From assembly GCA_035634255.1 (NCBI GenBank), contig DASQDI010000068.1, positions 23,695 to 87,694 of the forward strand: a stretch of DNA of 64,000 nt, read 5' to 3'. Made by a program: the position numbers and the translations under genes. The notes under the pieces are model-generated. The model was not told the origin of the DNA, ran no database searches, and was given only the letters and a program-made list of their open reading frames with translations. Shown here piece after piece: positions 8,086-53,288 of this stretch. Every line of letters begins with the position of its first letter. The first letter of the stretch is position 1. The DNA is from Blastocatellia bacterium (lineage in GTDB: Bacteria; Acidobacteriota; Blastocatellia; UBA7656).

Positions 8086-8240
8086 CGTAACGGGCTCCGG
8101 TGTACGATTTTGACTCGCAGGGGTCAGGCGAATATGAGCTAATCCTACCGTGTCGTCAGATTTGATGGCTGGCGGCAAAAAAATCTCTAAAGTCCAAGAA
8201 AAAAGGCACAAATTGGGAAAGTTATGCTAGAATACAAGCT

Positions 8241-8393
8241 ATGAAATGCCCAAAGTGCTTCAACCCCCTCCGACGTGTAAGTAGTACAGAGGATTCTGTA
8301 TGGTTTACTTGCCCGTTGGGTCATAGGTTCCACTCAGAGACAGGTAGCGGTATCAGTGATTCAGAAGGTCATCGTTACGCTGTATCGGAGTGA
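8241..8393 (+). CDS. Putative small zinc-ribbon protein (50 aa)
   Basis: MKCPKCFNPL...FTCPLGHRF has CxxC...CPxGH spacing. It lies in the AT-rich intergenic region, is not in the ORF track and is followed by a hairpin at 8400-8435. Speculative. Confidence 0.25.
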   Translation: MKCPKCFNPLRRVSSTEDSVWFTCPLGHRFHSETGSGISDSEGHRYAVSE

Positions 8394-8399
8394 GATTTA

Positions 8400-8435
8400 G
8401 CGGCTGCCTTCGTTCAAAAACGGAGGCAGCCGTAG
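8400..8435. terminator. Hairpin (GGCTGCCTtCG-TTCAAAAA-CGgAGGCAGCC) downstream of the minus-strand KGG gene
   Basis: Stem-loop located 3' of the minus-strand stress-protein gene (stop at 8489). Weak U-tract. Confidence 0.3.
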
Positions 8436-8488
8436 GGATTCATCCTCGAATTGATCACCCCGGACAATTAATCTCTTAAGTTCAGGCT

Positions 8489-8701
8489 TCAATCGGAAGT
8501 AAGGCCGCCAGGACTGCCTTTCTTGTCGCCCACGTGTGTGGACCGCTTGCCGCCTCCCTTTACTCCGCCCTCCTGTTGGCCGCCCATTCCGCCGCCGCCT
8601 TTACCGCCTTTGCTGCTTCTGTCCGCGGCTTCGCCCCCGGCCACATTCTTATCCTGCAAAGTGTCCTGCTCCGATTTCATCTTTGTTGCTTTCGGCATTG
8701 T
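8489..8701 (-). CDS. KGG-repeat general stress protein (YciG/ConJ-like), ~70 aa
   Basis: Gly/Lys-rich with KGG repeats (SKGGKGGGG...GGVKGGGKR...GDKKGSPGG). ATG at 8701 is preceded by a strong SD (GAGGGAGGAG). The track ORF is longer upstream. Confidence 0.7.
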   Translation of the reverse strand, partial: TMPKATKMKSEQDTLQDKNVAGGEAADRSSKGGKGGGGMGGQQEGGVKGGGKRSTHVGDKKGSPGGLTSD

Positions 8702-9154
8702 AATCTCCTCCCTCTTAAACTCCGCTCGATCAATTATCTGTTCACCCGCCTTTGTGAAGTGCAAGTAATATTCCAGAGTGAAAGACATTGCCAGGTGCTA
8801 AAAAGTTAACATTAAGCCCCCGGAGGCCGTCCGAAACTGATTCATAGTCGCGGCCTCATGTGTAAATGAATTGTAAAACTCCGTGGCAATTGAAAAAGTT
8901 AGAAAAATGTATGATTAATATTGATAGTTAGTCTTGCCTCGATTGCTCAACAAAGCTAAAACATAATTGCTTGAGTCTGGTAGGCTGGCGAATGGGGATA
9001 CATGTATCGTCTGGCCTACTCAAAACAGGTTAAGAATCGGGAACAAAGGGAAAAATCAGCCACCATGTCCAGGGCAGGGAGTGCTTAAGTGTATCCATGC
9101 CGAGGTCGTTGTTCGAGGCTTTGGCTCCAGCTTACGATTAAAGGAGTAGTTACG

Positions 9155-10573
9155 ATGGAAAGGCGAGCTACACAGGAGAGTCCGGTTGACCTTATAGACA
9201 GCGGTCAATTTCTAACGGCTGAGGAGATTTTTTCCGAGCGCAGGACCGACGACCCGATGGAGATGGTAGTCCGGTCCGAGGTCGCGATCTATTTCGACAG
9301 ACTGGATGATGGTGCGGACCTTCTGCAACAAGTGGCATCCCGGATCGGCGATATTGATGTGGCCGCGCGTTTCTCTCTGGCCAGAGGCCGCCTCGCGCTC
9401 TGGCAGGACGACGAGTCTCAGGCTAATACGCAGTTTCAGACGGCTTATCATTTTTACCTTTTTCGGAGCGATAATTTCGGCCTGAGCCAGGCCCTTCTCG
9501 GTCTGGCCAATCTGGCCAGGCGTCACGGCAATTATGAAGATGCGAAGTCGATGCTGGGCACGGCGCAGGAGGGCGTCAAAGGCCGCAGCAGCAGGAAGAT
9601 GGAATTCCTGCGCGGGATGATCACGGCGGAACAGGCCTCCCTGGCCGCCGACCGGGGCGAAGTCGATAACGCGGCCGAGTATTTTACCGAGGCCGCGCGA
9701 ATGCTGAAGGGGGCCGAGCGGGGGCGCTTTTACGCGAGGGCTCTCGTCGGCGCGGCCGACCTCAAATGCTCTCTGGGGGATTTTCAGGACTCTCTCGAAC
9801 TTTATAAGGAAGCGAACACTATTTTCGAGCGCTATGATGTGAAACGGGACAGGGCCGAGTGCCAGCTCAAGCTCGCCGAAGCTTTGATACGATTGAAGCG
9901 GTACGAGCGGGCCGAAAAACTCTCGGAAGAGAGCCGCGAACTGGTCACGGGCAACGATAAAGGCGAAAGCAGGGCCCTCTCCCTGCTCGCCCAGGTCGCG
10001 CTCCAGCAGAACGAGATAGACGAGGCCGCGAGCCGCGCGGTACTGGCGGTGGAGCTGGCCGACAAATCGGACTCTACCGGCACCCGCGCCTGCGCACGCA
10101 TCGCTCTGGGGCAGGTCAGGCTGGCCGAGCGCGATTTCAAACAGGCGACCGAAACTTTAAGGGAGGCCCTGGACCTCGCTCGCGCCTCGACCAATTTATC
10201 CGAGAATCGGCGGCTGGAGCTTGCGTCCATAATCTACCTTGCCGAGGCGTACCATAACGTCGATACGAGGGCGGGCCGGACCGAGCTTGTACGAGCCAGC
10301 GAAATACTCAACACTTTCGAAGACGCCTGGCTGGGAGATGAGTTCACCCGCGTGGCGGCAAAGTACGAGGAGCAGATCGTCTTCACCGACGATAACAGAC
10401 TCGTGTTCGATGGCAACCAGCTGCCGAGGTGGCAGGAGGCCAAGCGGACCCTTGAGGGCTTCCTCCTTCGCAACGCCCTGAGGCAGACCAACAACAGCCT
10501 CACGCGCGCCGCGCGAAAACTCGGGGTCTCGAAGGTGCACGTGCACAACCTGAAGAAGAAGCACGGCATTTAG
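9155..10573 (+). CDS. TPR-repeat regulatory protein with C-terminal Fis-type HTH (HTH_8)
   Basis: Multiple TPR-like helical repeats. C-terminal NNSLTRAARKLGVSKVHVHNLKKKHGI is a Fis-family HTH. No sigma54 AAA+ domain. ATG at 9155 has an AAAGGAG SD. Confidence 0.7.
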   Translation: MERRATQESPVDLIDSGQFLTAEEIFSERRTDDPMEMVVRSEVAIYFDRLDDGADLLQQVASRIGDIDVAARFSLARGRLALWQDDESQANTQFQTAYHFYLFRSDNFGLSQALLGLANLARRHGNYEDAKSMLGTAQEGVKGRSSRKMEFLRGMITAEQASLAADRGEVDNAAEYFTEAARMLKGAERGRFYARALVGAADLKCSLGDFQDSLELYKEANTIFERYDVKRDRAECQLKLAEALIRLKRYERAEKLSEESRELVTGNDKGESRALSLLAQVALQQNEIDEAASRAVLAVELADKSDSTGTRACARIALGQVRLAERDFKQATETLREALDLARASTNLSENRRLELASIIYLAEAYHNVDTRAGRTELVRASEILNTFEDAWLGDEFTRVAAKYEEQIVFTDDNRLVFDGNQLPRWQEAKRTLEGFLLRNALRQTNNSLTRAARKLGVSKVHVHNLKKKHGI

Positions 10574-22090: not shown

Positions 22091-22864
22091 ATGTTTACAA
22101 GAAGTGTCCGAACCTTTCTTGCGCTCGCGGTCGTGGCTTTCGCCGTCTTCAGCGGAGTACGCACGACGGACGCGCACCACGCGGTGCTGCGTTTCAATCT
22201 GGAAGAGATGGCGGTGACGGCGGAGCGCATCTTCGTCGGCCGCTGCGTCTCCGTCGAAGAGACCGAAGAGATGATCGCTCAGGGCATGATGCCCGTCACG
22301 CGCTACACGTTCGAGGTCGAGCGCGCGATCAAGGGGCGCTTGCCCCGGGTCGTCACCTTCACGCAGCTGGGCCACCCCGCGCGCCGCTCCGTCGGCAAGG
22401 GCGGCGTCCCGAGCAAAGGGAGGGTCAACCCCGGCCCGAAATCATTCTTCCACGCGACGCGAGAGTACAAGGTCGGGGAGCGGTCCGTACTCTTTCTCAT
22501 CAAGGAGTACACGGACGGCAAAGTCACGCGCCCGGTCGGACTCTACCAGGGGGTGTTCGAGGTGTCGCGCATGCCTTCGGGCAAAGAGGTCGTGCGCAAC
22601 AGCATAAACAACAGCGGCCTGTTCACGGCTCCTTACAACGGCACGAGGATGAAGGAATCGGACGCCCGCGTAATCTTTCCCGAACGCGACTCCGCGGGCG
22701 ACGGGCGCTCGAACGTCGGCCCCGAAGCCGAGTCGCTCAGGAGCAAGCGCGGGGCCCTGCCGCTCGACGAATTCCTGGGGCTCGTGGAGAGGGTCGTCGA
22801 GGTCCACGGGGGTGAGAAGGGCGTCATAGTCAGAGGACCCGACAAAGGAGCAGTACAGCAATGA
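22091..22864 (+). CDS. Hypothetical secreted protein
   Basis: Signal peptide, no recognisable family. Its stop overlaps the start of the next gene (ATGA). Confidence 0.6.
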   Translation: MFTRSVRTFLALAVVAFAVFSGVRTTDAHHAVLRFNLEEMAVTAERIFVGRCVSVEETEEMIAQGMMPVTRYTFEVERAIKGRLPRVVTFTQLGHPARRSVGKGGVPSKGRVNPGPKSFFHATREYKVGERSVLFLIKEYTDGKVTRPVGLYQGVFEVSRMPSGKEVVRNSINNSGLFTAPYNGTRMKESDARVIFPERDSAGDGRSNVGPEAESLRSKRGALPLDEFLGLVERVVEVHGGEKGVIVRGPDKGAVQQ

Positions 22865-24714
22865 TCAGCCGTCTATTAAATATTCGCGTAAATATTCGCG
22901 CAGCTTTTTCAGTGTCGGTCCCGGCCCTGGCCCTCGCCCTCATCATGGGCACGGCGGACGCCGGCGGGCCTAACAGCATCAATGAAGAGACCGGGCGGCC
23001 CGTGCTCTGGGCCCGCTCGGAAGTCAGGGGCGGCGCGCTCAACTCGCGGACGGTCGACGCGGATGGCCGCGTCCTCTACCGCGTCGACTCCGGGCCGCTC
23101 GGCACCATCCCGAACGCGGAGGCGGTCGCGCTCGCCGATCACATATTCGGCCTCTATAGCAACATACCGGGCTCGACGCTCGACTTCGTGAACGCGGGGC
23201 CGATCCTCGACCCCGCGACGGGGCAGCCGGTCGATGTCAACGGGAGCAACTTCGGGAAATTCCTCAGCTCCAACAACCCGACCTTTCAGAACCCGATCAT
23301 ATTCGACACGAACGGCGACCTCACCAGATCGATCACGGGCGACAGAGACGTGCTCGGGCTCGCGGGCGTCATAGCGCTCAGCGAAGATGAGAGCGAAGTC
23401 TACGAGGCCGTCGTCATACTGAACGGGGCCGTGGTCGGGGCGCTCGGCGGGAAGGTACCGTTTCAAGGCATATTCACCCACGAGTTCGGCCACTTCGCCG
23501 GGCCGCTCGACCACTCACAGATCAACGGCAACATCGCCTCCGACGGCGACGGCGTGACGATGCCCGCGGGGTTCGACCGGGTGTCGGCCTTCGACCTCTA
23601 CACGCCTTTCACGGAGACCATGTACCCGTTCTTCTTCCCGCCCGGATCGAGCCCGGTCCCCGGCAACTCGGCGCTCGTCTCCAAGGGCTTCAGCAACTCC
23701 GGCTTCTTCATCGCCTCGCTCGACATGGACACGAGCAACGCCATGTCGAACCTGTACCCGACGCCCGAGTACCTCGCGCAGCACGGGGCCATCGAGGGGC
23801 GCGTGCTGATTCGGACCGCGAGCGGCGACTTCCCCGTCACGGGGATCAACGTCGTCGCGCGCCGCATAGACCGGGCGGGCGCTTATCCGCCCTCGCCCAC
23901 CACGCTCGCCTTCCCCGGCAACCAGATCCCGGTCACGGAAGGGGTGCCCGACATCCCCGTCGGGCAGGACGCCACCGACCCGCTCGCGACCGCCGCGAGC
24001 ACGGTCACGGGGTACGAGCTTCCGGGAGGCGCTTACCGGATACAGGGGCTCCCGCCGGGCCAGTACATCGTCGAGGTCCAGCGGATCAACCCGCAGGCGC
24101 TCGACGGGTCGGGCATCGGGCCTCTGGCCAGCTTATTCCAGTTCCCGCTCGCCATCGAAGAGTTCTACAACGGCGCTCTCGAATCGGGCAGGTCGACCGA
24201 CGTGGCGAGCGCGTTCACGGCCGTCACGGTGAACGCGAACGACACGACGCCGAACATCGACATAGTCCTCAACATCAGCGACGCGCCCGGATCGAATCTG
24301 GCCGAAAGAGAGTCGAACGATAAGACGAAGAAGGCGCAAAAACTGGGCAACCTCCCGGGAGAGCTGGCGGGCGCGGCCAGCGCTCTGGACTCCTCGTTGC
24401 TGAGGATGACCTTCCCCGACGGCTCGACGGACAACATAGAGGACCTGTACAGCTTCACCCTGACGGCTCCGCGCGTCGTTTACATAATACTTGAGCCGAC
24501 ATCAGGCTCGGGCGACCTCGATCTTTACCTCTTCAACTCGGCGGTGAGCAAGAAGAAGACCAGCATCAATGATCCTAACCTGATCGATTTCAGCCTCAGC
24601 TTCGCTTCAACCGAGTTCATCCCGATAGAGCTCCCGCCGGGCACTTACATAATCGGGGTGACCGCCTTCGACGGCAGCCAGAATTACAGGCTGCGCGTGC
24701 TCCCGTCGCCTTAA
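22861..24714 (+). CDS. Secreted zinc metalloprotease (HExxH, metzincin-like Met-turn) with C-terminal PPC (pre-peptidase C-terminal) domain
   Basis: HEFGHFAGPLDH motif and a downstream ETMYP Met-turn. The C-terminal ~100 aa is PPC-like (DLYSFTL...GDLDLYLF...YIIGV). Confidence 0.65.
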   Translation: MISRLLNIRVNIRAAFSVSVPALALALIMGTADAGGPNSINEETGRPVLWARSEVRGGALNSRTVDADGRVLYRVDSGPLGTIPNAEAVALADHIFGLYSNIPGSTLDFVNAGPILDPATGQPVDVNGSNFGKFLSSNNPTFQNPIIFDTNGDLTRSITGDRDVLGLAGVIALSEDESEVYEAVVILNGAVVGALGGKVPFQGIFTHEFGHFAGPLDHSQINGNIASDGDGVTMPAGFDRVSAFDLYTPFTETMYPFFFPPGSSPVPGNSALVSKGFSNSGFFIASLDMDTSNAMSNLYPTPEYLAQHGAIEGRVLIRTASGDFPVTGINVVARRIDRAGAYPPSPTTLAFPGNQIPVTEGVPDIPVGQDATDPLATAASTVTGYELPGGAYRIQGLPPGQYIVEVQRINPQALDGSGIGPLASLFQFPLAIEEFYNGALESGRSTDVASAFTAVTVNANDTTPNIDIVLNISDAPGSNLAERESNDKTKKAQKLGNLPGELAGAASALDSSLLRMTFPDGSTDNIEDLYSFTLTAPRVVYIILEPTSGSGDLDLYLFNSAVSKKKTSINDPNLIDFSLSFASTEFIPIELPPGTYIIGVTAFDGSQNYRLRVLPSP

Positions 24715-24779: not shown

Positions 24780-25844
24780 TCAGGGCTTCCGCCGCTTCTG
24801 CTTCTCTTTCTCTTCCTTCTCCATCTGCCGCCGCTTTTCCGCCTCTTCCTGAAGCTCCAATAAAGTAGGCAGCCTGTCCGCGAAAGTGACCTCTTCGCGG
24901 TAGGTCGAGTGGACCGGCCTGCCGTTGAGGAGCGCGGGCGTGAAGACGTACTGGCGGAAGGCGTCCACCGCGCGGTCATCTATGGAAGGGTCGAGCGAGC
25001 GGAGCACGCGGATGTTCGTCACCCTACCTTCGGGAGTTATTACTCCCCCGAGCAGCACGGCCCCCTTGACCCCGCGCCCCGTCTCGAACTTCGGCGTGAC
25101 GCGCTCGGTCACGGACGGGGGGGTGAAGCGGTCGCCTTCCTTCAACTCGACGGGGCTCCCGAACTTATCGACGGGGCGCGCCAGTTCTTCGGGCCTGTCG
25201 CGGAGGCTTGAGACGGGCACGATCTCCGGCGTGACCGATATCAGGATCACCCTCTCCGACGGGACGCCCTCCTGCCGGCCGCTCGCCCCGGTGCGGTAAT
25301 CGACGCCGAACATCCCGCGCCCGCCCCGGAGCAACACGGTCTCGAAGTTCCCGAACTCGACCTCACGCGCGTCGAGCAGTGGGCCGTTATCGAAGGCCGC
25401 TTTCACGTCCAGCTTGAGATACCCGCGCGCCACTTTTCGCGGGATTATCGAAAGCTCCAAATACTTGTCGCCGACCCTCACCGCGTCGTCGAACCTCTCG
25501 TCGCCGCGGAGCCCGACCGAGCGCACATGCCGGACCTCTACGCCTTCGAGCTTGTTGTTCTCCCTGAGGTGCGCCATCTCTTCTTTCGCGCTCGAAAAAG
25601 TCGAAGAGAGCCGCACGACCTCTTCCAGAGATGGCGAACGCGCCGGGTCGTACTGGTAGACCGCGTAAGTCAGGTTGACCCCGAACGCGCGCCCCGAAGG
25701 GCGGCCGCCCGCCGCCCCGCTCTGCGCGAGGCCGACGCTTCCCAGCGCCGCGAGCAGGCAGGCGGAGAGGGCGATTATTTGAATGGCCCTTCGGAGAATC
25801 GCTAATCTTACCGACGGTGCCGGGCTCTTGCCGCAATCGATCAT
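24780..25844 (-). CDS. Secreted protein with TonB C-terminal-like domain and K/E-rich tail
   Basis: TonB_C-like segment (GRVTNIRVLRSLDPSIDDRAVDAFRQYVFTPALLNGRPV). C-terminal EKEEKEKQKRRKP tail. Confidence 0.55.
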   Translation of the reverse strand: MIDCGKSPAPSVRLAILRRAIQIIALSACLLAALGSVGLAQSGAAGGRPSGRAFGVNLTYAVYQYDPARSPSLEEVVRLSSTFSSAKEEMAHLRENNKLEGVEVRHVRSVGLRGDERFDDAVRVGDKYLELSIIPRKVARGYLKLDVKAAFDNGPLLDAREVEFGNFETVLLRGGRGMFGVDYRTGASGRQEGVPSERVILISVTPEIVPVSSLRDRPEELARPVDKFGSPVELKEGDRFTPPSVTERVTPKFETGRGVKGAVLLGGVITPEGRVTNIRVLRSLDPSIDDRAVDAFRQYVFTPALLNGRPVHSTYREEVTFADRLPTLLELQEEAEKRRQMEKEEKEKQKRRKP

Positions 25845-26754: not shown

Positions 26755-27189
26755 TCATACCACTTCGAGCGCGGAGGTGCATTGCGGGCAGCGCCTTGCC
26801 TGGACCGGGATGCTTGAGAAGCAGTACTCGCACGCCTTGACCGTGGGCGGCAGGTCTTCCGGGCGGCGCTTCATTCGGTTTATCGCCTTGATGATGAGGA
26901 AGATGACGAAGGCGATTATGAGAAACTCAATGGCGGCCTGAATGAACTGCCCGTAGTTGATGGTGGGGAGGCTCGCCGCCTTCGCCTCCGCGAGCGTCGC
27001 GGGGTTGCCCCGCAGGGCGACGAAGAGGCCCGCGAAATCTATCCCGCCCATGAGCAGCCCGATTGGCGGCATCAGTATGTCGTTGACCAGAGAGGTGACG
27101 ATCCTGCCGAACGCCGCGCCGATGATGACCGCGACCGCAAGGTCTATCACGTTCCCCCTTGCGATGAACTCCTTGAATTCTCTCAGCAT
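26755..27189 (-). CDS. mscL: Large-conductance mechanosensitive channel MscL with C-terminal CxxC...CxxC zinc-ribbon tail
   Basis: MLREFKEFIARGNVIDLAVAVIIGAAFGRIV is the canonical MscL TM1. The tail is CEYC...CPQC. Confidence 0.85.
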   Translation of the reverse strand: MLREFKEFIARGNVIDLAVAVIIGAAFGRIVTSLVNDILMPPIGLLMGGIDFAGLFVALRGNPATLAEAKAASLPTINYGQFIQAAIEFLIIAFVIFLIIKAINRMKRRPEDLPPTVKACEYCFSSIPVQARRCPQCTSALEVV

Positions 27190-27587
27190 CGTGAGATTCT
27201 CCTTTCATGTCGAAGTCCGCGGGTAGAGTTCTCTGGAACGGATTCTAGCTGATCGGGAAGCCGTGTAGAAGCTTGATACCTGCAATCGGCGCGACGCCGG
27301 AAAAGGTCGGCTTCAACCCACGGGCGGGGAGGCGGTACACGAAGTCGAGGACATGCGCGCGGCGGTTAAGAAAAATGCCGGGCGGAGTCCGTCGCGGGTG
27401 CCCCTTATATTTTGCGCTTAAGATTGCGCCACAAATGCAAATCTGGTCTAATAATCGCGGTCCATATCTCGTAGTAGTTTGGGTGCCCTTTGGCTCAGGT
27501 TGTTATTCGTTCCTTCAAGTCTCGCTCTGGTGACTCAGATCGACCCTTTATAAGTGACGATAGCCGCTGCCTCTGAAATTACGCTGT

Positions 27588-30500
27588 GTGAGGAAAGCTG
27601 TGCGAAATACTCTCTCCGGTAGTAAGGCGGTTGTCTGCCTCGCGGTATCTTTTTTCGCCCTCATGGGCCTGCTCCCCTCCCGGCCCGGATCGACGGGCGC
27701 GCGAGTCGCGGCTTCGGCCGCGGGAGATTCAAGGGTCGGCCCCGGCCGCTCCGGGGAGGAGATCGAAGACCGGGTCAGGGATTCGTATGGGAAGCTGCCT
27801 CTCATGTTCGAGGCGAACGTCGGGCAGGCCGATTCGAAGGTGGACTTCCTCTCGCGGGGCGCGGGCTACAGCGTGTTCATAAGCTCGACCGAAGCCGTCT
27901 TCGCTATGTCGCACTCGTCTGCTTCCGACGACTCCGACGCCGGAAAGAAGGCCTCTCTGCTCCGCATGAGACTCGTGGGGGCGAGCCCGCACGCCCGGCC
28001 CGAGGGGCTTGAGCTGATGGAGGGCACGAGCAACTACTTCGTGGGCGGGGACGAAAAGAAGTGGCGCACGGCCATCCCCAACTATGGCAGAGTGCTCTAC
28101 AGGCAGGTCTACGCGGGAATAGACGTGTCTTATTACGGCAACCAGAGGGAGCTTGAATACGACTTCATAGTGGCTCCGGGAGCCAGTTCCAAGGCGATCA
28201 GGCTGGAATTCAAGGGGGCGCGGCGGATGCGCGTCGACGAGGCCGGCGACCTGCTGCTGGGCACGGCCGCGGGCGAGATGAGGCAGCGCAGGCCCGTCGC
28301 CTATCAGGAGGTTGACGGCGCGAGGCGGAGCGTCGAGGCGCGGTACGTGATCAGGGGCAGGAATAAGGTCAGCCTGAAGGTCGGCGCGTACGACGCGAGC
28401 AGGCCGCTCGTCATCGACCCGGTATTCAGCTATTCGACCTTCCTCGGCGGGGTCGCCGAAGAGACGGCCAGAGGCATCAGATTAGATTCGGACGGCAACG
28501 CCTACGTCACCGGGCGCACCCGGTCCGCCGGCTTTCCAAAGACTGTTGGCTCTTTCGACCCGACGTACAATGAAGGGGCCGACATATTCGTCACCAAATT
28601 AAATGCGGACGGCTCGGGCCTGATCTACTCGACTTTCATCGGCGGGGCGCGCGACGAGGAAGGGTTCGGCATCGCCCTCGACCCGTCGAACAACGCTTAC
28701 GTGACCGGGTTCACGAGGTCGAACGATTTCCCCACCACGCCGGGGGCGTTCCAGCCGCAGCCCTCTTTAAATGTCGACACTGAAGCCTTCGCGATCAAGT
28801 TGAACTCCGCGGGCTCGGCCCTTGTTTACTCAACCTATTTAGGGGGCGACGGGACCGATCAGGGGAACGGCATCGCCGTGGACGCGGAGGGCTTCGCTTA
28901 CGTGACGGGGGCGACCGCCTCCCTGAATTTCGACACGACTCCGGGCGCGTTTCAAAACACGATTGAGGGTAACGTGGCCTTCGGCGACGCCTTCATCACC
29001 CGGCTGAATCAAGGCGGCACGGGCCTCATGTATTCGACCTACCTCGGGGGCACGAATTTCGATACGGCCTTAGGCATTGACGTGGACGCGGCGGGCCTCG
29101 CTTACGTCGCCGGCACGACGCGCTCGGTGGACTTCGACACGACTCCGGGTGCGTTCCAGACCACATTCATCACCGACGGCGGGTTCAACTTCAGCGACGC
29201 TTTCGTAACGAAGGTGAACAGCAACGGCACGGGGCTGATCTATTCCACCTACGTCGGAGACATCGGCGAGGAGACGGCGCGAGGCATCCATGTCAACTCG
29301 GCGGGGGAAGCGTACGTGGTCGGGAACAGCGATTCGCAGAGGTTCCCCACGACTCCGGGAGCCCTGCGGGTGGCCAACAAAGGCGTGGTCGGGTCCGCGA
29401 ACGGGGGGGCCGGCTGGTCCTCTCTGAATGCTGAAATGCCTGACCTTTCAATCCAGACTACGTTCATTAACACCGTAGTCATCGACCCGTCCACGCCCTC
29501 GACGATCTACGCCGCCACGTCCGAAACGGGCGTCTTCAAGAGCACGAATGGCGGCGGAAGCTGGGCCGCGATGAACTCGGGCCTGCCGGAAGAGGATCTG
29601 AGGACCCTCTCCCTCGCCATAGACCCGTCCGCCCCGTCCACTCTATATGTCGGCACGCACTTCAGGGGCGTTTTTAAGACCACGGACGGCGGGGCATCCT
29701 GGCAGGAGATCAACAACGGTCAGACCGATCCGAGGATATTCGAAGTCGCGGTGGACCCGAGCACGCCTTCGACGATTTATAACGGGAGCGAATTCGGCGT
29801 CTTCAAGAGCACAGACGCAGGCGCGCACTGGGCGCGCATTAATTCGGGGCTCTCGATCAGCTTGAGCGTGTCGGTGTTCATAGACCCATCCAACCCCTCA
29901 ACCGTTTATGGCGGGGCGGGCTCCAACGGCATCATCAAGAGCACGGACGGCGGAGCCACGTGGCGGGAGACGGGGATACCTGATGACTTCCTCGACTCTA
30001 TGGCTATACATCCGGTGACGGGCACCCTGTTCGCGAGTAATGGCGCGGGGCTTATAAAAAGCACGGATGGCGCGGCCACGTGGAGCGCGGTCGACTCGGA
30101 CCTTACCCGCAGAACCATCAGCCACCTGGCGATCCAGCCGAGCGACCCTTCCATAATGTACGCGGGGACGATCAACGGGGTCATCAAATCGACCGACGGA
30201 GGGGATACGTGGAGCGAGGCAAATGCCGGGCTCATAGGGTCCTGGGTCAGGACCGTTTCCATCGACCCGGTCAATAGCTCGACGGTCTATGCGGGCTTGA
30301 ACGATGGCAACGTAGACGCATTCGCATTGAAGCTGAACGCGGGAGGCACGGCCCTGGTCTATTCAACGTTGCTCGGCGGCGCGGGCAATGAACAGGCTCA
30401 TGCCGTGGACGTGGACTCATCCGGAAACGCCTACGTCGCCGGCGCGGCATTTTCCAGTACATTTCCCGTCACCCGCGGGCTCAGCCCTTTTAGAGGCGGC

Positions 30501-32333
30501 TTCACCGACGCATTCGTATCGAAGCTGAACCCGTCGGCCTCGGCTCTGGTCTACTCGACGTGCGTCGGCGGCCCGAGGCAGGATACGGCTTTCGCCGTGG
30601 CCGTAGACTCCGCCGAAAGCTGCCACGTCGTGGGGACATCCTCTTCCCCGGAATTTCCTACGACCCCGGGAGCATTCCAGCCCGTGATAGCCGGCACCCC
30701 GCCCGGAGGTTCCGCCGACGCCTTCATATCAAAGCTTCAGCCCGAGCCCGTGCTGCGAACCGACCTCAGCGTCACGATGACCGGGCCGGCAGAGAGCATC
30801 GCGGGCCACGGAGTGGTTCACACCATCAAGGTGACCAACGACGGCGACGAAGATGCGGTATCCATCGTGGTCTCGACCGACATGCCCCCATCCCTGATAT
30901 TGAGTTCGTGTGAAGGCGATTCGTGCACAGAGGTGCTAAACGATGTCAGGTTCGACATACCGTTCCTCGCCCCCGGCCAGAGCGCAGACTTCTCCTTCAC
31001 CTCCTCCATAGCGTGTAACGTCCAGTTCCCGGCGACTATCACCTCGACGGCCAGGGTCAGCTCTCTGTCCATCGACCCGAACGCGGCGAATGATTCCGCC
31101 TCGTTCACTTTTACGGCCACGACTCCCCCAGGCTTTATCGACCCGTCCGAATTCACCATCCCATCGGAAGGCGGCTCGTCGGGCTTCGTCGTCATCAATG
31201 GGTCAGGCTGCGCCTGGAATGCCGTGAGCAACGTCGATTGGATCACCATAATCGATGGCACCGGTTGCTGCGACAGCGGCGGCGTCTCTTACAGAGTGGA
31301 CCTCAACCCCGGCCCCCCTCGCGTCGGCACGATCAGCGTCGTGGGGCGGACCTTCACCGTCCATCAGGAGGCCGGATTCAGCGCGGGGGGCTTTATAGGC
31401 GTCCCGGTCAACATCGGAATCCTCGGGATTCCGGGCGTGACTGTGACTTTTACCAGAGTTAGCGGCACGGGGGCCCTCCCCGCGCCCGTCACCACCAACG
31501 CCTTCGGCAACTGGTCCCAGACCGGTTTCGAATTCGGCACCACCTATCGCGCCACCCCGGCGAAACGCCGCTTCACCTTCGCCCCGACTTCCACGGACTT
31601 CAGCGCGAGGGAGATGGGGATCGACTTCACCGGATCGAAGAACGCCGATACGGCCGGCGTGTTCCGCCCGTCGGACGGGTCCCTCTTCCTCAAAAACACG
31701 AACGGCACCGGCTTCGCGGATACCTTCCTCACCTATGGCATCCCCGGCGACTATCCCGTGACCGGAGACTGGGACGGCGACGGCATAGATACAATCGGCG
31801 TGTACCGTGGCGGCACCTTCTTCCTGAGGAACTCCAACACCAATGGCTTCGCCGATGTGGTCGCCGCCTTCGGCCTGCCCGGAGACCAGCCGGTGGTGGG
31901 CGACTGGGATGGTGACGGCATAGACACAATCGGGGTCTTCCGCGAGGGAGTATTTCTGCTCCGCAACTCTAACACGACGGGCGACCCGGAGACCGTCTTC
32001 GTACTCGGGAACCCCGGAGACGTGGGCATAGCGGGAGACTGGGACGGCGACGACATCGTGACGACGGGCGTATTCCGCCCCTCTAACGGAGCCTTGTTCT
32101 TGAAGAACACGAACTCAACTGGATTCGCTGACATCGTGTTGACGTACGGGCTGCCGGGAGACAAGCCCGTGGTCGGAGACTGGAACCGAGATGGGAGGGA
32201 CACGATAGGCGTCTACCGTCAGGGCACGTTCTTCCTGAGGAATTCGAATACCAACGGCTTTGCGGACATCGTGTTTACTCTCGGTGTTCCCGAGGACCAC
32301 CCGATAGCGGGCGACTGGAACGGGCTGCCCTGA
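27588..32333 (+). CDS. Giant secreted multi-repeat protein (1581 aa): SBBP beta-propeller repeats, BNR-like repeats, DUF11, Ig/BACON-like domain, C-terminal FG-GAP-like tandem repeats
   Basis: Signal peptide. Repeated YSTxLGG...GxxIAVDxxGNAYVTGxTxSxDFPTTPGAFQ units (SBBP), and about 10 xSTDGGxxW BNR-like units. A DUF11-like segment (DLSVTMTGP...VTNDGDEDA). Five C-terminal ~45-aa GDWDGDGxDTIGVFR repeats. GTG start at 27588, or more likely the GTG at 27600 after a GAGGA SD. Confidence 0.8.
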   Translation: MRKAVRNTLSGSKAVVCLAVSFFALMGLLPSRPGSTGARVAASAAGDSRVGPGRSGEEIEDRVRDSYGKLPLMFEANVGQADSKVDFLSRGAGYSVFISSTEAVFAMSHSSASDDSDAGKKASLLRMRLVGASPHARPEGLELMEGTSNYFVGGDEKKWRTAIPNYGRVLYRQVYAGIDVSYYGNQRELEYDFIVAPGASSKAIRLEFKGARRMRVDEAGDLLLGTAAGEMRQRRPVAYQEVDGARRSVEARYVIRGRNKVSLKVGAYDASRPLVIDPVFSYSTFLGGVAEETARGIRLDSDGNAYVTGRTRSAGFPKTVGSFDPTYNEGADIFVTKLNADGSGLIYSTFIGGARDEEGFGIALDPSNNAYVTGFTRSNDFPTTPGAFQPQPSLNVDTEAFAIKLNSAGSALVYSTYLGGDGTDQGNGIAVDAEGFAYVTGATASLNFDTTPGAFQNTIEGNVAFGDAFITRLNQGGTGLMYSTYLGGTNFDTALGIDVDAAGLAYVAGTTRSVDFDTTPGAFQTTFITDGGFNFSDAFVTKVNSNGTGLIYSTYVGDIGEETARGIHVNSAGEAYVVGNSDSQRFPTTPGALRVANKGVVGSANGGAGWSSLNAEMPDLSIQTTFINTVVIDPSTPSTIYAATSETGVFKSTNGGGSWAAMNSGLPEEDLRTLSLAIDPSAPSTLYVGTHFRGVFKTTDGGASWQEINNGQTDPRIFEVAVDPSTPSTIYNGSEFGVFKSTDAGAHWARINSGLSISLSVSVFIDPSNPSTVYGGAGSNGIIKSTDGGATWRETGIPDDFLDSMAIHPVTGTLFASNGAGLIKSTDGAATWSAVDSDLTRRTISHLAIQPSDPSIMYAGTINGVIKSTDGGDTWSEANAGLIGSWVRTVSIDPVNSSTVYAGLNDGNVDAFALKLNAGGTALVYSTLLGGAGNEQAHAVDVDSSGNAYVAGAAFSSTFPVTRGLSPFRGGFTDAFVSKLNPSASALVYSTCVGGPRQDTAFAVAVDSAESCHVVGTSSSPEFPTTPGAFQPVIAGTPPGGSADAFISKLQPEPVLRTDLSVTMTGPAESIAGHGVVHTIKVTNDGDEDAVSIVVSTDMPPSLILSSCEGDSCTEVLNDVRFDIPFLAPGQSADFSFTSSIACNVQFPATITSTARVSSLSIDPNAANDSASFTFTATTPPGFIDPSEFTIPSEGGSSGFVVINGSGCAWNAVSNVDWITIIDGTGCCDSGGVSYRVDLNPGPPRVGTISVVGRTFTVHQEAGFSAGGFIGVPVNIGILGIPGVTVTFTRVSGTGALPAPVTTNAFGNWSQTGFEFGTTYRATPAKRRFTFAPTSTDFSAREMGIDFTGSKNADTAGVFRPSDGSLFLKNTNGTGFADTFLTYGIPGDYPVTGDWDGDGIDTIGVYRGGTFFLRNSNTNGFADVVAAFGLPGDQPVVGDWDGDGIDTIGVFREGVFLLRNSNTTGDPETVFVLGNPGDVGIAGDWDGDDIVTTGVFRPSNGALFLKNTNSTGFADIVLTYGLPGDKPVVGDWNRDGRDTIGVYRQGTFFLRNSNTNGFADIVFTLGVPEDHPIAGDWNGLP
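31656..32330 (+). repeat. Intragenic tandem repeat (5 x ~135 bp) encoding FG-GAP-like units
   Basis: DNA-level tandem periodicity visible (…ggagactgggacggcgacggcatagatacaatcggcgtgtaccg…, recurring about every 135 bp). Confidence 0.7.
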
Positions 32334-32578
32334 GGCGAAAAGCCGCGCCGGCAAAGCGCCCCTCCCGCTCGATTAATAAGTTGCGGGAGGGCGATGAGAC
32401 GGGCTAAAATTACAGGCTCATCTGGCTAGCCGGGTCAATAATATTAGATATATCCCCAGTAAATCAGCCTGGATAAAAGTTTGACTAGAGCCACGGAGCT
32501 ACTTTATAGTGTGCCAGATTTTAAATAATGCTCAATAAGTTGTGGTCCTGACCGTCTGCTTCTGCCACGAGGTACCGA

Positions 32579-35500
32579 ATGTTTAGATTGGAAAAGTTAG
32601 AGATCAGCGGCTTCAAATCGTTCGCCGACCGCACCTCGCTCGTCTTCGGGGAGGGGATAACCGGCGTCGTCGGCCCGAACGGCTGCGGGAAGAGCAACAT
32701 CGCGGAGGCCATCTCGTGGGTGCTCGGCGAGCAGTCGGCCAAGAACCTGCGCGGCGGCAAGATGGAAGACGTGATTTTCAACGGCACGCGCGACCGCAAG
32801 CCCGTGGGGCTGGCCGAAGTCACGCTCACTCTCGTCGCCATCGAAGACATAGCCGCGCGCGACTCCGACGACGGGAAGGACGCCCAGGACGAATACGAAG
32901 ACGTGGTCGAAAAGGCCGAGCGCGCCGCCCAATCCGCCCGCGACCTCGTTCAGGGGATAACGCGGGAGGCGTCTCAGGAGGCCGCGCGCGAAGGCGAGGG
33001 TTCGGAGCCCTCCGCGTCGGCCGCGGTCGAGTCGGATCAAACGGCCCCGCTCGCGGGCGGGCCGGACGCGGAGCAACCCCAGGCGGCTCAGACGGAACCG
33101 CAGACTAAGGCGGCCGACCGCAGCCGCGCGAAGACGCCCCGCAGGCGAAAGGCGGTCGCCGTCTCCGCGGGCGAGCGCATCAGCGTGGGCCGCAGGCTCT
33201 ACCGCACGGGGGACAGCGACTACCTGATGAATGGCCGCCCGTGCCTCCTCAGGGACATTCAGGATTTATTCGCGGGCACGGGGCTGGGCGGCTCGCATTA
33301 CGCGATCATCGAGCAGGGGCGGATAGGGCAGATACTCTCGTCCAAGCCGCTCGACCGCCGCGCGCTCATCGAGGAAGCAGCGGGCATAACCAAATTCAAA
33401 ACGCGAAAGCGCTCCGCGGAATTGAAGCTCGAATCCGCGAAGCAGAACCTATCGCGGCTCAACGACATCATCTCCGAGGTGGAGCGGCAGGTGAACAGCC
33501 TCAAGCGGCAGGCGCAGAAGGCGCGCCGCTACAGGCGCTTGCGCGAAGAGATGCGCAGCCTGCAAAAGCTCACCTTCACCGCCGACTACTACAGGCTCAA
33601 CGCGGCCATCGAGCGGATCGCCGGGGAGTTCGAGTCGGCGGGGGCGAATCAGAGGGAACTGGACGCGCGGCTCGTCGAGCGCGAGACCGAGTACCGCGCG
33701 GTCTCCGCCGAGGCGCGGGCGGCCGAGGACGGTCTTTCGGCCCTCCGCGAGCAGGCCGCAGCCATCGAGCTTGAGGCCGACCGCGCGCGCAATCGCAGGG
33801 CTTTCGAAGAGCAGCAGCTTAAAGAATTGTCCGCCCGCATCGAGGAGCTCGAACGCGACCAGCAGGCCTTGTCGGAGCGGCTCTCCATGCTCGAAGCCGA
33901 GGCCGAACGCCGGGCGTCGGACCTGAAATCGCTTGAGACGGAGGTCTCTTTCGAGCAGGTCGATCTGCTGAATCGCGAGGGCGAGTACCAGGCCGAGCTC
34001 GCCCGGCTCAGGGAGGCCGAGAGCGAAATCGAGCAACTGCGCCAGCGGCTCGTTTCGGAGATCGGCATGACCGAGCGCCTGCGGAACACCGGCGCGAGCC
34101 TCGAAGACACGCTCCGCCGCGTCGTGCTCAAGCAGACCAACCTCCACTCCGAGATGGAGCGCGCGGAGGCCCGGCAGTCCGAGGCCGCGAGCGAATACGC
34201 GCGCGTGGGCTCGGAAGTCGAAGACAACCGCGTGAGGCTGCTCGACCTGTCGGCGCGCATCTCGGAGCGCTCGACGCAACTCTCCGCGCTCAGGGAGCAG
34301 GAGGAGGATTACCGCTCGCGGCTCTCGGCCATTCACGGCGAGCGCACCTCGGCGGAGCACAGGCTCCTGTCACTCGAAGAGGTGGACGCGCACCGCTCTT
34401 ACTACTCCGACGCGGTCCAGCAGGTGCTCTCGCCCGAGCAGGCGGCTCGCATAAACGGGCTCGGCACCCTCGCCGACTTCGTCGAGGTCGAGGCGCAGTA
34501 CGAGCGCCTGATTGAGAGCCTTTTCGGGCGGGAGCTTCAGTGCGTGCTCGTGCCGACCATAGACGACGCGCTCGCGGGCGTGGAGTACATAAAGGCTTCG
34601 GAGCTTGGGCGGGGCGCGTTCCTTGTCGTCGGGCTGCACGGGGGCGAAGGCGAGCCCTCCGATTTCCTCGTGGAGTCTCCCGCCGGCGACGGCGCGGTCA
34701 CGGAGATGATCTCGATTGACCGCCAGCTGCCGCCCGCGCGAAGCCTCGACGCCGACGTAGGGACGGAACTTTACTCGGAGAACCGGAGCTTCGCCGAAGA
34801 GATATTTGATGAAAAGATTCTCGGCGGGGACGCCGAAACGGAGGGCGACGAGCCGGCCGAGAGCTTCGACGAGGCGGTGCGGGTCTCGTACGACGAGGCG
34901 TCCGCGCCCGCCGAAGGGAACCTCGCCGAAGACCGCGCGCGGCGCGAGCAGTTCGACCGCGAGGCTGCCGTGAGCGCGGGCAGGTTTCAGCTCGACGTGT
35001 TGCGCGCCATAGACCTGCTCAGGCTGCGGCCGGAGATTAAGACGGTAGTCGAGCGCGCTTTTCCTGAAAAATGCGCCGCCTACGTCGTTCCTGATATCGA
35101 GGCCGCGCTCCAACTCTCCATCGAGAACGCCTCGCGCGTCTACGTCACGTACGAAGGGGAGCAGGTCGTCAACGGCCGCCTGATAGTGACCGGCGCGCAG
35201 GCGGGGCAGAAGGGCACGTCCCTGCTCGGCCTCAAGCGCGAGATCAAAGAGCTGAGGGTGAGGACCGTTGAGCTGCGGGCCGAAGAGGGGCGGCTTTCGG
35301 AGCAGCTCTCGGGGGCGCGTCAGCAGTTTCAGGAGGTCGAAGGCGAGACCTCTTCGCTCGACCTCGAATTGCGCGAGCACGAGAAGGCCGTGGCCGCGCG
35401 CGACTCGCAACTGGAGGGGCTCGCCCGCGACCTGGAGCGCGCGCGGCAGCACGTGCGCGTGGTCGAGGCGGAGCTTGAGCAGACGGCCGACGAGCGGGCT

Positions 35501-36841
35501 GATCTCGAATCGCGGATCCTGCGACTGGGCGAGGAGCTGAAGGCGGCCGAAGCCTCCCGCGACATCGTGCAGCAGTCGCTCACGTCCGCGCAGTCCGCAT
35601 TCCTCGAAATGCGCGGCAAGGTCGAGCAGATGTCGGAGCAGCTCTCAAGCGCGCGCGCTTCGGTCGCCGCCCGCGTCGAGCGGTTGCAGGCCGCGCGCTC
35701 CGAGGTGCGGAGGATAGAGAACGAGTCGGAAGAGCTTCGCGGGCGGATCAACCGCAACCGGCTTGAGCTTTACGAGAGCCACGGCCGCGCGGAGCAGTTG
35801 ACCGAGTCGCGCGCGGAAGCCGAGACGACCGCCGCGCGCTTCGAGGCCGAGCAGGCGGGGCTCGCGCAGGAGATCGGCGTCGCCGGGGAGGCCATGGCTT
35901 CCGCCCGCGCGCGCGCGGACGAGCTCGAAAAGATGCTCACGGAGCTGAGGCAGGCGGCGGGCGCGGCGCACGAGCGGCGCGGGCAGATCGAGGTCGAGCG
36001 CGCGCGCATAGAGTCGGAAGCCGAGCACCTGACCCGCTCCTGTTTTTCGGAGCTCGCCATGTCGCTCGAAGACGTGGTCACGAGCGTCGAGCTGGGGCAG
36101 GCCGCGCGGCAGTTCTCCGCCGACGACGAGCCGGAGCCCGCGCAGGCCGAAGCGCCGGAGGGCGAGCCTCAGGCGGCCTCAGACTCCGGCATCGACATCG
36201 ACGCGGCGAAGGCGCGGCTCGACGAGCTGAGGGTGAAGATCGACGAGATGGGGCCCGTGAACATGATGGCGCTCGAAGAGCTTGAGGAGTCGGACCAGCG
36301 ATTCACTTTCCTCTCCGAGCAGCGGCGCGATATCCTTGACTCGATCAAGCTGACGGAAGAGGCCCTGTCGGAGATCAAGCGCCGGTCGCGCGAGCGGTTC
36401 CGCCACGCCTTCATGCACGTCAACCGGAACTTCCAGGAGATGTTCGTGGAGCTGTTCGGGGGCGGGCGCGGCGAGATGATCCTCATCGACGAGGAAGACG
36501 TTCTCGAATCGGGGATCGACCTGATCGCGCAGCCGCCCGGAAAGAGGTTGCAGAACGTCCTGCTCCTGAGCGGCGGCGAGAAAGCGATGGCGGCAATCGC
36601 CCTCGTGCTCGCGATATTCCAGTACCGGCCGTCGCCCTTCTGCATACTCGACGAGGTCGACGCGCCGCTCGACGAGATGAACGTGGGCCGCTTCTCGAAT
36701 AAAGTTATCGAGATGAGCGAGGGCACGCAGTTCCTCGTCATCACTCACAACAAGCGCACGATGGAAGCGGCGCGCGCCCTGTACGGCGTCACGATGGAAG
36801 AGCCCGGCGTTTCCAAGCTGGTCTCTGTAAAGTTCGAGTAG
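32579..36841 (+). CDS. smc: Chromosome partition protein Smc (1420 aa, with low-complexity insertions)
   Basis: N-terminal Walker A (GPNGCGKSNI). Coiled coils, hinge, and C-terminal signature/Walker B (LSGGEKAMAAIALVLAIF...ILDEVDAPLD). It is longer than typical because of an acidic insert near the head and an insert near the hinge. Confidence 0.9.
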   Translation: MFRLEKLEISGFKSFADRTSLVFGEGITGVVGPNGCGKSNIAEAISWVLGEQSAKNLRGGKMEDVIFNGTRDRKPVGLAEVTLTLVAIEDIAARDSDDGKDAQDEYEDVVEKAERAAQSARDLVQGITREASQEAAREGEGSEPSASAAVESDQTAPLAGGPDAEQPQAAQTEPQTKAADRSRAKTPRRRKAVAVSAGERISVGRRLYRTGDSDYLMNGRPCLLRDIQDLFAGTGLGGSHYAIIEQGRIGQILSSKPLDRRALIEEAAGITKFKTRKRSAELKLESAKQNLSRLNDIISEVERQVNSLKRQAQKARRYRRLREEMRSLQKLTFTADYYRLNAAIERIAGEFESAGANQRELDARLVERETEYRAVSAEARAAEDGLSALREQAAAIELEADRARNRRAFEEQQLKELSARIEELERDQQALSERLSMLEAEAERRASDLKSLETEVSFEQVDLLNREGEYQAELARLREAESEIEQLRQRLVSEIGMTERLRNTGASLEDTLRRVVLKQTNLHSEMERAEARQSEAASEYARVGSEVEDNRVRLLDLSARISERSTQLSALREQEEDYRSRLSAIHGERTSAEHRLLSLEEVDAHRSYYSDAVQQVLSPEQAARINGLGTLADFVEVEAQYERLIESLFGRELQCVLVPTIDDALAGVEYIKASELGRGAFLVVGLHGGEGEPSDFLVESPAGDGAVTEMISIDRQLPPARSLDADVGTELYSENRSFAEEIFDEKILGGDAETEGDEPAESFDEAVRVSYDEASAPAEGNLAEDRARREQFDREAAVSAGRFQLDVLRAIDLLRLRPEIKTVVERAFPEKCAAYVVPDIEAALQLSIENASRVYVTYEGEQVVNGRLIVTGAQAGQKGTSLLGLKREIKELRVRTVELRAEEGRLSEQLSGARQQFQEVEGETSSLDLELREHEKAVAARDSQLEGLARDLERARQHVRVVEAELEQTADERADLESRILRLGEELKAAEASRDIVQQSLTSAQSAFLEMRGKVEQMSEQLSSARASVAARVERLQAARSEVRRIENESEELRGRINRNRLELYESHGRAEQLTESRAEAETTAARFEAEQAGLAQEIGVAGEAMASARARADELEKMLTELRQAAGAAHERRGQIEVERARIESEAEHLTRSCFSELAMSLEDVVTSVELGQAARQFSADDEPEPAQAEAPEGEPQAASDSGIDIDAAKARLDELRVKIDEMGPVNMMALEELEESDQRFTFLSEQRRDILDSIKLTEEALSEIKRRSRERFRHAFMHVNRNFQEMFVELFGGGRGEMILIDEEDVLESGIDLIAQPPGKRLQNVLLLSGGEKAMAAIALVLAIFQYRPSPFCILDEVDAPLDEMNVGRFSNKVIEMSEGTQFLVITHNKRTMEAARALYGVTMEEPGVSKLVSVKFE

Positions 36842-51965: not shown

Positions 51966-52598
51966 ATGCAATTGAACTTTATTCTTTTATGGGAAATCTG
52001 GCGCACTCTGAGGCGTCTGGGCGGGCTGGGTCTTATTCTGATGGGTCTGGTCGATAGCTCCGTGATCCCGACTCCGGGAGGTCAGGACGCTCTGACTATA
52101 ATGCTGGCGGCGGGAGAGAAGGACTGGTGGCCTTACTATGGCTTGATGGCCGCGCTAGGCTCGGTGCTCGGCGGGTACGTGACGTATCGGCTCGGGCGCA
52201 AAGGCGGGGAGGAAGCTCTGGAGCAGCGCCTCTCCAAGCGCAAGCGCGAGCGCGTCAAACGGATATTCGAGAAGTGGGGATTCGGGGCGGTCTTTGTTCC
52301 GGCAATAATGCCGCCGCCCGTACCTATAAGCCCCTTCCTGCTGAGCGCGGGGGCGATGGACTACCCGATAAAGAAATACCTGCTCGCTCTGTCGGCGGGG
52401 CGGGTCCTCAGGTTCGGTCTGGTCGCGTATTTTGCTTCGATATATGGGCGGCGGGTGCTGAGGTTCTTCGCCGATAATTACATGACGGTCATCGTCGTGA
52501 CGGTGAGCCTCGCCGTGATCGGGGTGGTGGTCTTCCTCGCTTATCGCGCGCGGCGCAAGAAGGCCGAGGACCATTCCCCCTCTCCGAGCCCAGGTTGA
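51966..52598 (+). CDS. DedA/YqaA-family (VTT/SNARE-associated) membrane protein
   Basis: Four to five TM helices. Conserved DedA-family motif region. Confidence 0.7.
   Translation: MQLNFILLWEIWRTLRRLGGLGLILMGLVDSSVIPTPGGQDALTIMLAAGEKDWWPYYGLMAALGSVLGGYVTYRLGRKGGEEALEQRLSKRKRERVKRIFEKWGFGAVFVPAIMPPPVPISPFLLSAGAMDYPIKKYLLALSAGRVLRFGLVAYFASIYGRRVLRFFADNYMTVIVVTVSLAVIGVVVFLAYRARRKKAEDHSPSPSPG

Positions 52599-53206: not shown

Positions 53207-53215
<9 letters not shown>
52595..53215 (+). CDS. HNH endonuclease-domain protein with N-terminal Cys-rich region, in a low-GC patch
   Basis: C-terminal HNH motif (CAICGYDKFVDVCHIKPV...NLVYMCPNHHREYD). Local GC is roughly 48% versus ~67% elsewhere. Its stop overlaps the 3' end of tRNA-Ser. 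The true start may be internal (for example the GTG near 52676). Confidence 0.6.

Positions 53216-53288
<73 letters not shown>

Follow-up and report, generated by a model that had tools for sequence, protein, structure and literature searches.

The VCBS supercluster of β-propellers is defined by a DxDxDG metal-binding AB loop and also includes PVL, integrins and tachylectins (Pereira and Lupas 2021, PMC8023676). Among lectin propellers, of which five-, six- and seven-bladed families have been catalogued, those of UmbA are swappable and were found experimentally to confer binding of cell-surface glycans and cell-wall glycopolymers (PMC13274773). DUF11, since renamed CLIPPER, is a documented stalk domain of fibrillar adhesins, and some DUF11 domains lack an isopeptide bond (bioRxiv 10.1101/2025.04.25.650565). 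Here we analyse one large gene of a soil acidobacterium of the class Blastocatellia (contig DASQDI010000068.1 of assembly GCA_035634255.1), situated in a stretch of 64,000 nucleotides which we call the window, whose product combines SBBP, Asp-box and VCBS/FG-GAP-like propellers with immunoglobulin (Ig)-like domains. Insertion of one propeller in another is known from DDB1 and CPSF160-type proteins, which are eukaryotic, intracellular and WD40-like and have three propellers.

The closest known proteins are the SBBP proteins of Acidobacteriota (HYP27020.1, which is identical, and homologues numbered here P0002 to P0064), in which the core order is the same as here, that is DUF7948, SBBP, Sortilin/BNR, SBBP, DUF11 and BACON. 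With the CLIPPER fibrillar adhesins it shares the logic of a head, an Ig-like stalk and a C-terminal attachment part, and its CLIPPER domain lies above the Pfam cut-off, but there is a single copy of this domain in place of a tandem stalk. We propose that the protein may be a non-enzymatic binding protein, exported by the Sec pathway of a Gram-negative bacterium and laid out like a fibrillar adhesin. Its head would consist of DUF7948 and an SBBP propeller of seven blades, from which a second propeller, of seven Asp-box blades, emerges at the loop that joins strands 3 and 4 of blade 5, and its stalk of three Ig-like spacers (CLIPPER/DUF11, BACON and CarboxypepD_reg-like). The C-terminal five-bladed propeller of VCBS/FG-GAP type, whose Dx[DN]x[DN]G loops probably bind calcium, would be the attachment part, fixing the protein in the manner of a lectin to a glycan of the cell surface or of the extracellular matrix. 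We consider the chances of a non-catalytic surface or matrix binding protein with such a head, stalk and attachment part to be about even.

Predicted topology of the head

N-terminal to the SBBP repeats Pfam finds a DUF7948 domain of 206 amino acids (PF25778; E 2.7e-65 and 220.8 bits, the cut-off being 27, over all 214 positions of the profile), which was missing from the domain list of the first-pass annotation of this DNA and which has no relative in the PDB by sequence search. SBBP itself (PF06739) scores 103.6 bits against a cut-off of 20.5, with five stretches N-terminal and two C-terminal of the Asp-box part, and pattern matching places the starts of seven blades at residues 282, 347, 414, 482 and 552, and then at 925 and 989. 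The fourth-strand motif DAFxxKLN, expected to close blade 5, is found at residue 910, right after the Asp-box region. An AlphaFold model of residues 277-1068, built with 30 homologues, reached a predicted local distance difference test score (pLDDT) of 89.5 and a predicted TM-score (pTM) of 0.89, with SBBP residues 282-599 mostly above 90 pLDDT. The SBBP repeats are modelled as a closed propeller of seven blades with four strands each, in which strands 1-3 of blade 5 precede, and strand 4 follows, a block of about 330 residues. Six complete Asp-box blades and one split between both ends of the block, seven in all, make up this insertion in the model, and the sequence holds six strict Asp boxes (S-x-D-x-G-x-T-W) at residues 652-868 and a degenerate SANGGAGW near residue 603. 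Five homologues which contain DUF7948 and SBBP without any Asp-box align colinearly with the large protein, and the only gap, a clean one, spans its 307 residues 600-906. Because of the modelled strand pattern and this clean gap in the SBBP-only homologues, the region is best described as one seven-bladed SBBP propeller with a predicted seven-bladed Asp-box propeller nested between strands 3 and 4 of its blade 5.

The first-pass annotation had named the SBBP family correctly but counted about seven units followed by three more, where we find seven in all, five starts before and two after the Asp-box part; its BNR/sortilin propeller of about ten blades, thought to be a tandem neighbour of the SBBP units, has seven blades and rather appears to be inserted inside SBBP blade 5. 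The sortilin label itself is in accordance with Pfam, in which Sortilin-Vps10 (PF15902) passes the cut-off (62.9 bits versus 33), although the best stretch covers only profile positions 4-117 of 446. A ten-bladed propeller with 10CC modules, as in Sortilin, is not what is seen here, since the 307 residues hold seven blades and a 10CC module is absent, and the resemblance is limited to the level of the Asp-box blade. BNR (PF02012) falls marginally below its cut-off, with a whole-protein score of 24.9 versus 27. In the PDB, Reut_B4987 (3b7f, E 8.5e-16), GH74 domains and Ycf48 match the Asp-box part by sequence, and DAIP (5fzp) is similar to it too; these likewise have SxDxGxTW boxes and seven blades, while the Asp-box propeller of the large protein differs from all of them in being an insertion within another propeller. 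As in the DDB1/CPSF160-type proteins, a whole propeller seems to emerge within the chain of another one, which then resumes, but the protein described here is bacterial and probably secreted, and pairs SBBP with Asp-box. Literature on nested propellers, SBBP, DUF7948 and PF06739 yielded nothing functional.

The same matches raise the question whether the protein could be an extracellular enzyme, with either the Asp-box propeller (GH74- or sialidase-like) or the SBBP propeller (CylK-like) being catalytic and the remaining domains serving as carbohydrate-binding or spacer modules. There is an NCBIfam match to "F510_1955 family glycosylhydrolase" (NF045728, E 4.5e-38), GH74 xyloglucanases and CylK, an alkylating enzyme, are among the Foldseek and PDB matches, as is 3b7f, a BNR "glycosyl hydrolase", and the C-terminal module is frequently fused to enzymes. 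However, the NF045728 match reaches 130.9 bits while the cut-off is 175, and consists of three partial stretches, as expected of repeated Asp-box blades; BNR_2, which is of sialidase type, scores 13.6-18 bits against 31.4, and no catalytic family of Pfam or NCBIfam was found above its cut-off in the large protein. The active cleft of GH74 enzymes lies between two Asp-box propellers, and a single one is present here instead of the pair. The structures of CylK and GH74 have merely 12-15% identity to the large protein, whose blades are regular and near the consensus, like those of the non-catalytic Ycf48. An enzymatic role is therefore improbable in our judgement, and the head would more probably act in binding.

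Ig-like domains of the proposed stalk

Three domains of Ig type lie between the head and the C-terminal repeats. DUF11/CLIPPER (PF01345) scores 51.6 bits against a cut-off of 24.6 over profile positions 1-113 of 114, which bears out the DUF11-type segment noticed in the first reading of the sequence. By sequence it finds nothing in the PDB, and no match to 9IFR. Its first strand reads DLSVTMTG, in which a methionine appears to stand in place of the isopeptide-forming lysine of the DLxxTK motif, so that a stabilising Lys-Asn isopeptide bond in this domain is doubtful. The BACON domain (PF13004) that was also proposed falls one bit short of its cut-off in the large protein (24.0 bits versus 25), while the aligned segment of P0002, the closest homologue, reaches 41.7 bits; the two alignable segments appear to be the same domain, here just under the threshold. 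It is followed by a β-sandwich which was absent from the anatomy first described and which we tentatively assign to a CarboxypepD_reg/SdrD_B-like type. The match of SdrD_B to residues about 1275-1345 is weak (E 0.016-0.018), and CarboxypepD_reg matches the corresponding segment of P0002 with E 1.6e-6 and 28.8 bits against a cut-off of 32.3. Among the full-length homologues this domain of about 75 residues is present only in the large protein and in P0002.

The C-terminal five-bladed propeller

The protein ends in five GDW(D/N)GDG repeats of 45-47 amino acids each, 40-71% mutually identical, which are followed by a final GDWNGLP. AlphaFold, given an alignment of 68 relatives, predicts a five-bladed propeller of 20 strands (pLDDT 96, pTM 0.91), whose ring is probably closed by the terminal strand AGDWNGLP. 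The best Foldseek matches in the PDB were, in this order, UmbA4 (9oee, E 2.8e-7), ITFG2, BBS9, PVL/PAL, RSL and integrin alpha-V; in 9oee the UmbA4 lectin propeller, from Streptomyces, has teichuronic acid bound to it, ITFG2 is an FG-GAP protein, and PVL and PAL are integrin-like fungal GlcNAc lectins. Sequence searches of the PDB with the module, both as a single sequence and as a profile, gave nothing credible, and a match to the Jep protease (E 5e-4) was dismissed as a coincidence of low complexity.

The five repeats were correctly counted in the first-pass annotation, although the integrin-alpha propellers to which they were likened there have seven blades of some 60 amino acids and not five of 45-47. 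A domain scan recovers the SBBP, Sortilin/BNR and DUF11 assignments but not FG-GAP, as Pfam FG-GAP_3 (PF13517) reaches only 12.4 bits on the repeats (E 0.25, cut-off 26.9) and FG-GAP (PF01839) has no match in the large protein. Kinship at the level of the superfamily is nevertheless indicated by comparison of profiles and structures. When the module profile was compared by hhalign with the C-terminal arrays of homologues which bear PF01839 or PF13517, the probability was 99.9% and E 7.3e-33 over 217 columns, and over 69 sequences the loop consensus is G-D-W-[DN]-G-[DN]-G-x-D-T-I-G, with the first aspartate conserved in 97-100%. Its counterpart in the VCBS supercluster is the AB loop that binds metal (PMC8023676). 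"FG-GAP-like" thus appears to be right for the superfamily and wrong for membership in the Pfam families. In common with the supercluster the module has blades of four strands, the aspartate-rich Dx[DN]x[DN]G loop, FG...G-x-P at the blade junction, a host protein that bears a putative signal peptide, and Ig-like companion domains. It differs in having five blades of 45 amino acids instead of seven of about 60, in the loop DWDGDGxDT, in which the last aspartate stands one position earlier than in DxDxDGxxD, and in being placed nearly always at the extreme C-terminus with the conserved end G[DN]W[DN]GxP.

The UmbA lectin propellers are the best structural match (20% identity), and both they and the present module seem to be swappable C-terminal modules of secreted proteins. 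UmbA4, however, is six-bladed, stands behind a trypsin-like domain and belongs to the umbrella toxin particle of Streptomyces, whereas the module here is five-bladed, and neither umb genes nor a toxin domain nor a match to UmbA at the level of sequence was found for this locus and module.

Exchange and spread of the C-terminal module

The full-length homologues give a view of how this end of the protein varies. Dozens of Acidobacteriota proteins have the same domain order with 40-55% identity over 93-100% of the length, and the DUF7948, SBBP and Sortilin-type calls occur together in around half of the 120 best matches of full length. The architecture, which had been called the most unusual of the window, is therefore that of an already annotated and widespread family, with a C-terminal propeller that falls within a described supercluster. 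In 30 homologue sequences the head and the DUF11-BACON stalk are held in common and the last module differs. The five-blade module ends P0002, P0004-P0010, P0012, P0014, P0015 and others; six classical FG-GAP repeats end P0013, P0016 and others, with longer FG-GAP variants elsewhere; and the slot is taken by three SLH domains in P0032, by DUF4214 in P0031 and by other repeats in further homologues. SLH domains are envelope anchors, and it is mainly because they occupy the same slot that we propose a role in attachment for the C-terminal propeller.

Outside this family the module is very common. An exhaustive HMMER search found it in 26,003 representatives of clusters at 50% identity with E <= 1e-3, and in 5,244 with E <= 1e-30. 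It lies nearly always at the extreme C-terminus, and the 150 best matches yielded 142 new representatives, unrelated proteins carrying the module, of which 102 have a chain that ends in G[DN]W[DN]GxP. The N-terminal parts of 71 module proteins have matches to 58 different Pfam families, most of which are enzymes of extracellular type or Ig-type domains; the fusion partners include metallophosphoesterases, fn3, PMP repeats, glucosaminidase, reprolysin, subtilase and CAP, and, in another list of matches, M23 and SpoIID. Neither Pfam nor NCBIfam has a model for the five-bladed module, and the FG-GAP models of Pfam reach E <= 1e-3 in just three of the 71 proteins. Carriers among the genomes of different species belong to Acidobacteriota, Chloroflexota, Actinomycetota, Clostridia, Planctomycetota, Verrucomicrobiota, Proteobacteria and several archaea. 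In genomes representative of species the module was seen in at least 561 loci, the archaeal ones including Methanoregulaceae, Methanoperedenaceae and Woesearchaeota, and several metagenome-assembled genomes (MAGs) have multiple copies on different contigs. One protein of 1154 amino acids from a Blastocatellia MAG (our locus L004, contig DATLMR010000432.1, 250-3714) has an unrelated N-terminal part followed by the same cassette of BACON-like domain, CarboxypepD_reg-like domain and propeller, of which the propeller segment is 79% identical to that of the large protein. It would seem from this that secreted proteins exchange entire C-terminal cassettes.

Defined by blades of 45 amino acids, G-D-W-[DN]-G-[DN]-G loops and the chain end G[DN]W[DN]GxP, the module could be a distinct prokaryote-wide unit, acting as a calcium-dependent glycan anchor and as a counterpart of SLH which would retain hundreds of different secreted enzymes and adhesins at the cell surface or within the matrix in Acidobacteriota, Chloroflexota, Actinomycetota and some archaea. 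We put this generalisation forward only tentatively, and consider it clearly less probable than the role proposed for the large protein itself.

Attachment to the own envelope or release

A different possibility is that the protein is a released lectin, in which the C-terminal propeller seeks the ligand, as a carbohydrate-binding module or an UmbA lectin does, and the protein cross-links polysaccharides of the environment or the biofilm, or other cells. The nearest solved fold, UmbA4, targets wall polymers of other cells, the module is distributed across phyla with very different envelopes, archaea included, and its fusion partners include the peptidoglycan hydrolase types M23, glucosaminidase, SpoIID and CAP. 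The large protein also shows no anchor motif. On the other hand, SLH domains stand in place of the module in close homologues, which speaks for attachment to the own envelope, at least in those organisms. All considered, we regard a released lectin as rather unlikely, yet as a more serious contender than an enzyme.

Several observations weigh against an attached binding protein as we propose it. The module is present in monoderms, diderms and archaea, and therefore a single envelope ligand common to all of them is unlikely. No recognisable sorting signal or outer-membrane anchor was found in the large protein, its putative signal peptide was picked out by eye from the translation, and the literature on SBBP/DUF7948 proteins of Acidobacteria yielded no experimental data. 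The TM-scores of the Foldseek matches are low (0.4-0.5), because blade numbers differ, a ring of five being superposed on rings of six or seven. The gene neighbourhoods give no hint of a partner either, as the loci of the homologues P0013 and P0005 have no neighbours in common with the window.

For export, the N-terminus resembles a signal peptide (Table 1), and equivalent hydrophobic N-termini are present in homologues. A lipoprotein was considered and rejected, for the sole N-terminal cysteine is preceded by merely three hydrophobic residues. A gene for a TonB_C-domain protein nearby in the window, one of a pair just upstream of the large gene, fits an outer membrane and a diderm envelope. 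The first-pass annotation had seen in the protein a cell-surface adhesin or a polymer-binding scaffold, and all features that we found are compatible with such a role: the segment resembling a signal peptide, the composition of β-propeller and Ig-like modules only, the CLIPPER/DUF11 domain and the lectin-like C-terminal propeller.

Integrity and start of the gene

The longest open reading frame (ORF) lies exactly where it had been placed before, on the + strand, with 1581 codons from a GTG. The NCBI record HYP27020.1, "SBBP repeat-containing protein [Blastocatellia bacterium]", from a contig of 104 kb, is 100% identical over 1577 amino acids and starts four codons later. A Shine-Dalgarno-like GAGGAAA at 27590-27596 falls within the first codons of the longest ORF, and a second GTG, at 27600, follows five bases on; this GTG, which is also the start of the NCBI record, is likely to be the true start.

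As the gene is internally repetitive and its source is a metagenome-assembled genome, it could be suspected of being an assembly artefact, or a pseudogene produced by mis-joining of repetitive DNA in a metagenome bin, and breakage of the frame by assembly errors in the repetitive 3' region had been named beforehand as an observation that would count against the annotation. The frame is intact and uninterrupted over 4.7 kb, and the GC content of the gene matches that of its flanks. Collapse or damage during assembly is unlikely because Tandem Repeats Finder finds no tandem repeats in the DNA of 27000-32700, the five C-terminal units are merely 53-72% identical to each other in DNA, homologues of nearly full length exist and both AlphaFold models are confident. 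One homologue has 1574 amino acids and is 55% identical with 99% coverage, dozens more cover 93-100%, and the same order and length recur in independent assemblies. The ORF is real and intact, and an artefact is so improbable that we give it hardly any weight.

Gene surroundings

The coordinates of all features are collected in Table 1.

Table 1. Features of the large gene and its flanks (positions in the window; residues numbered from the first codon of the longest ORF).
Feature	Position	Strand	Basis or remark
Large ORF	27588..32333	+	Longest ORF, 1581 codons from GTG
Signal-peptide-like N-terminus	27588..27719	+	Basic n-region, 16-residue hydrophobic stretch AVVCLAVSFFALMGLL, possible cleavage site between ASA and A
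DUF7948 domain (residues 74-279)	27807..28424	+	Pfam PF25778
SBBP propeller, blades 1-4 and strands 1-3 of blade 5 (residues 282-599)	28431..29384	+	Pfam, AlphaFold
Predicted seven-bladed Asp-box (BNR/Sortilin-like) propeller inserted in SBBP blade 5 (residues 600-906)	29385..30305	+	
SBBP closing strand of blade 5 (DAFALKLN, residue 910) and blades 6-7 (residues 907-1052)	30306..30743	+	
DUF11/CLIPPER Ig-like domain (residues 1059-1174)	30762..31109	+	Pfam PF01345
BACON-like Ig domain (residues 1183-1261)	31134..31370	+	Pfam BACON, near cut-off
CarboxypepD_reg/SdrD_B-like β-sandwich, tentative (residues about 1275-1345)	31410..31622	+	Weak matches
C-terminal five-bladed VCBS/FG-GAP-like propeller (residues 1348-1581)	31629..32330	+	AlphaFold, Foldseek, hhalign
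Divergent intergenic region between mscL and the large gene	27190..27587	.	ORF list; 398 bp
Stem-loop (GCGCCCCTCCCGC ... GCGGGAGGGCG)	32357..32393	+	24 nt past the stop codon; no T-run

The large gene stands alone between a divergent mscL gene and a downstream smc gene. The start codon of mscL is at 27189 on the - strand (MscL Pfam match, E 8e-44), and the non-coding leader of 400 bp described in the first reading, while present with 398 bp, is the divergent intergenic region that the two genes share. The sole sigma-70-like site which a promoter scan picks up in it, at 27269-27242 on the - strand, faces mscL, and no promoter was found on the + strand of the leader. Rfam gives no match in the leader at E <= 1; over leader and gene together the sole match is a chance one to a viral pseudoknot, inside the ORF and on the opposite strand, and a riboswitch or leader RNA was accordingly rejected. 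An ORF of 86 codons with a TTG start (27273-27533) occupies much of the intergenic region; it is unsupported and probably a chance ORF in GC-rich DNA. The hairpin reported behind the gene does exist, but it lacks a T-run and only marginally beats shuffled sequence (z = -1.9; 8 of 200 shuffles fold equally well), and a terminator scan finds no canonical terminator after the large gene and does not pick up this stem-loop.

The idea of partners in an operon was abandoned, since the loci of P0013 and P0005 are situated in unrelated neighbourhoods, and no further copies of any domain of the large protein were found elsewhere in the window. Two genes just upstream, at 22861-24714 and 24780-25844, encode a 617-amino-acid protein with a C-terminal PPC (pre-peptidase) domain and the TonB_C-domain protein, and are consistent with a diderm which exports many proteins. 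The downstream SMC-like gene (32579-36841) is long, with 1420 codons, and has an acidic stretch of low complexity soon after the N-terminal ATPase head. Farther away, the ORF at 54183-56753 (856 amino acids) has no Pfam match at E <= 1e-5. The GC content of the window dips to 0.53-0.54, from about 0.63, at 8001-10000, which overlaps the gene for a TPR-repeat protein (9089-10573), and at 52001-54000, where tRNA-Ser(TGA), the sole tRNA gene in the window, is situated (53206-53288).

Conclusions

Soils are rich in acidobacteria, whose genomes encode many giant secreted proteins with roles yet to be assigned, and this locus gives a clean domain map for one such family. The findings refine annotation and leave current understanding unchanged. 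Two details are modestly new: the predicted insertion of one propeller in another, which is conserved across the family, and a very common five-bladed C-terminal module which escapes the standard domain libraries. This module marks secreted proteins in many phyla, and a dedicated profile for it would improve their annotation.

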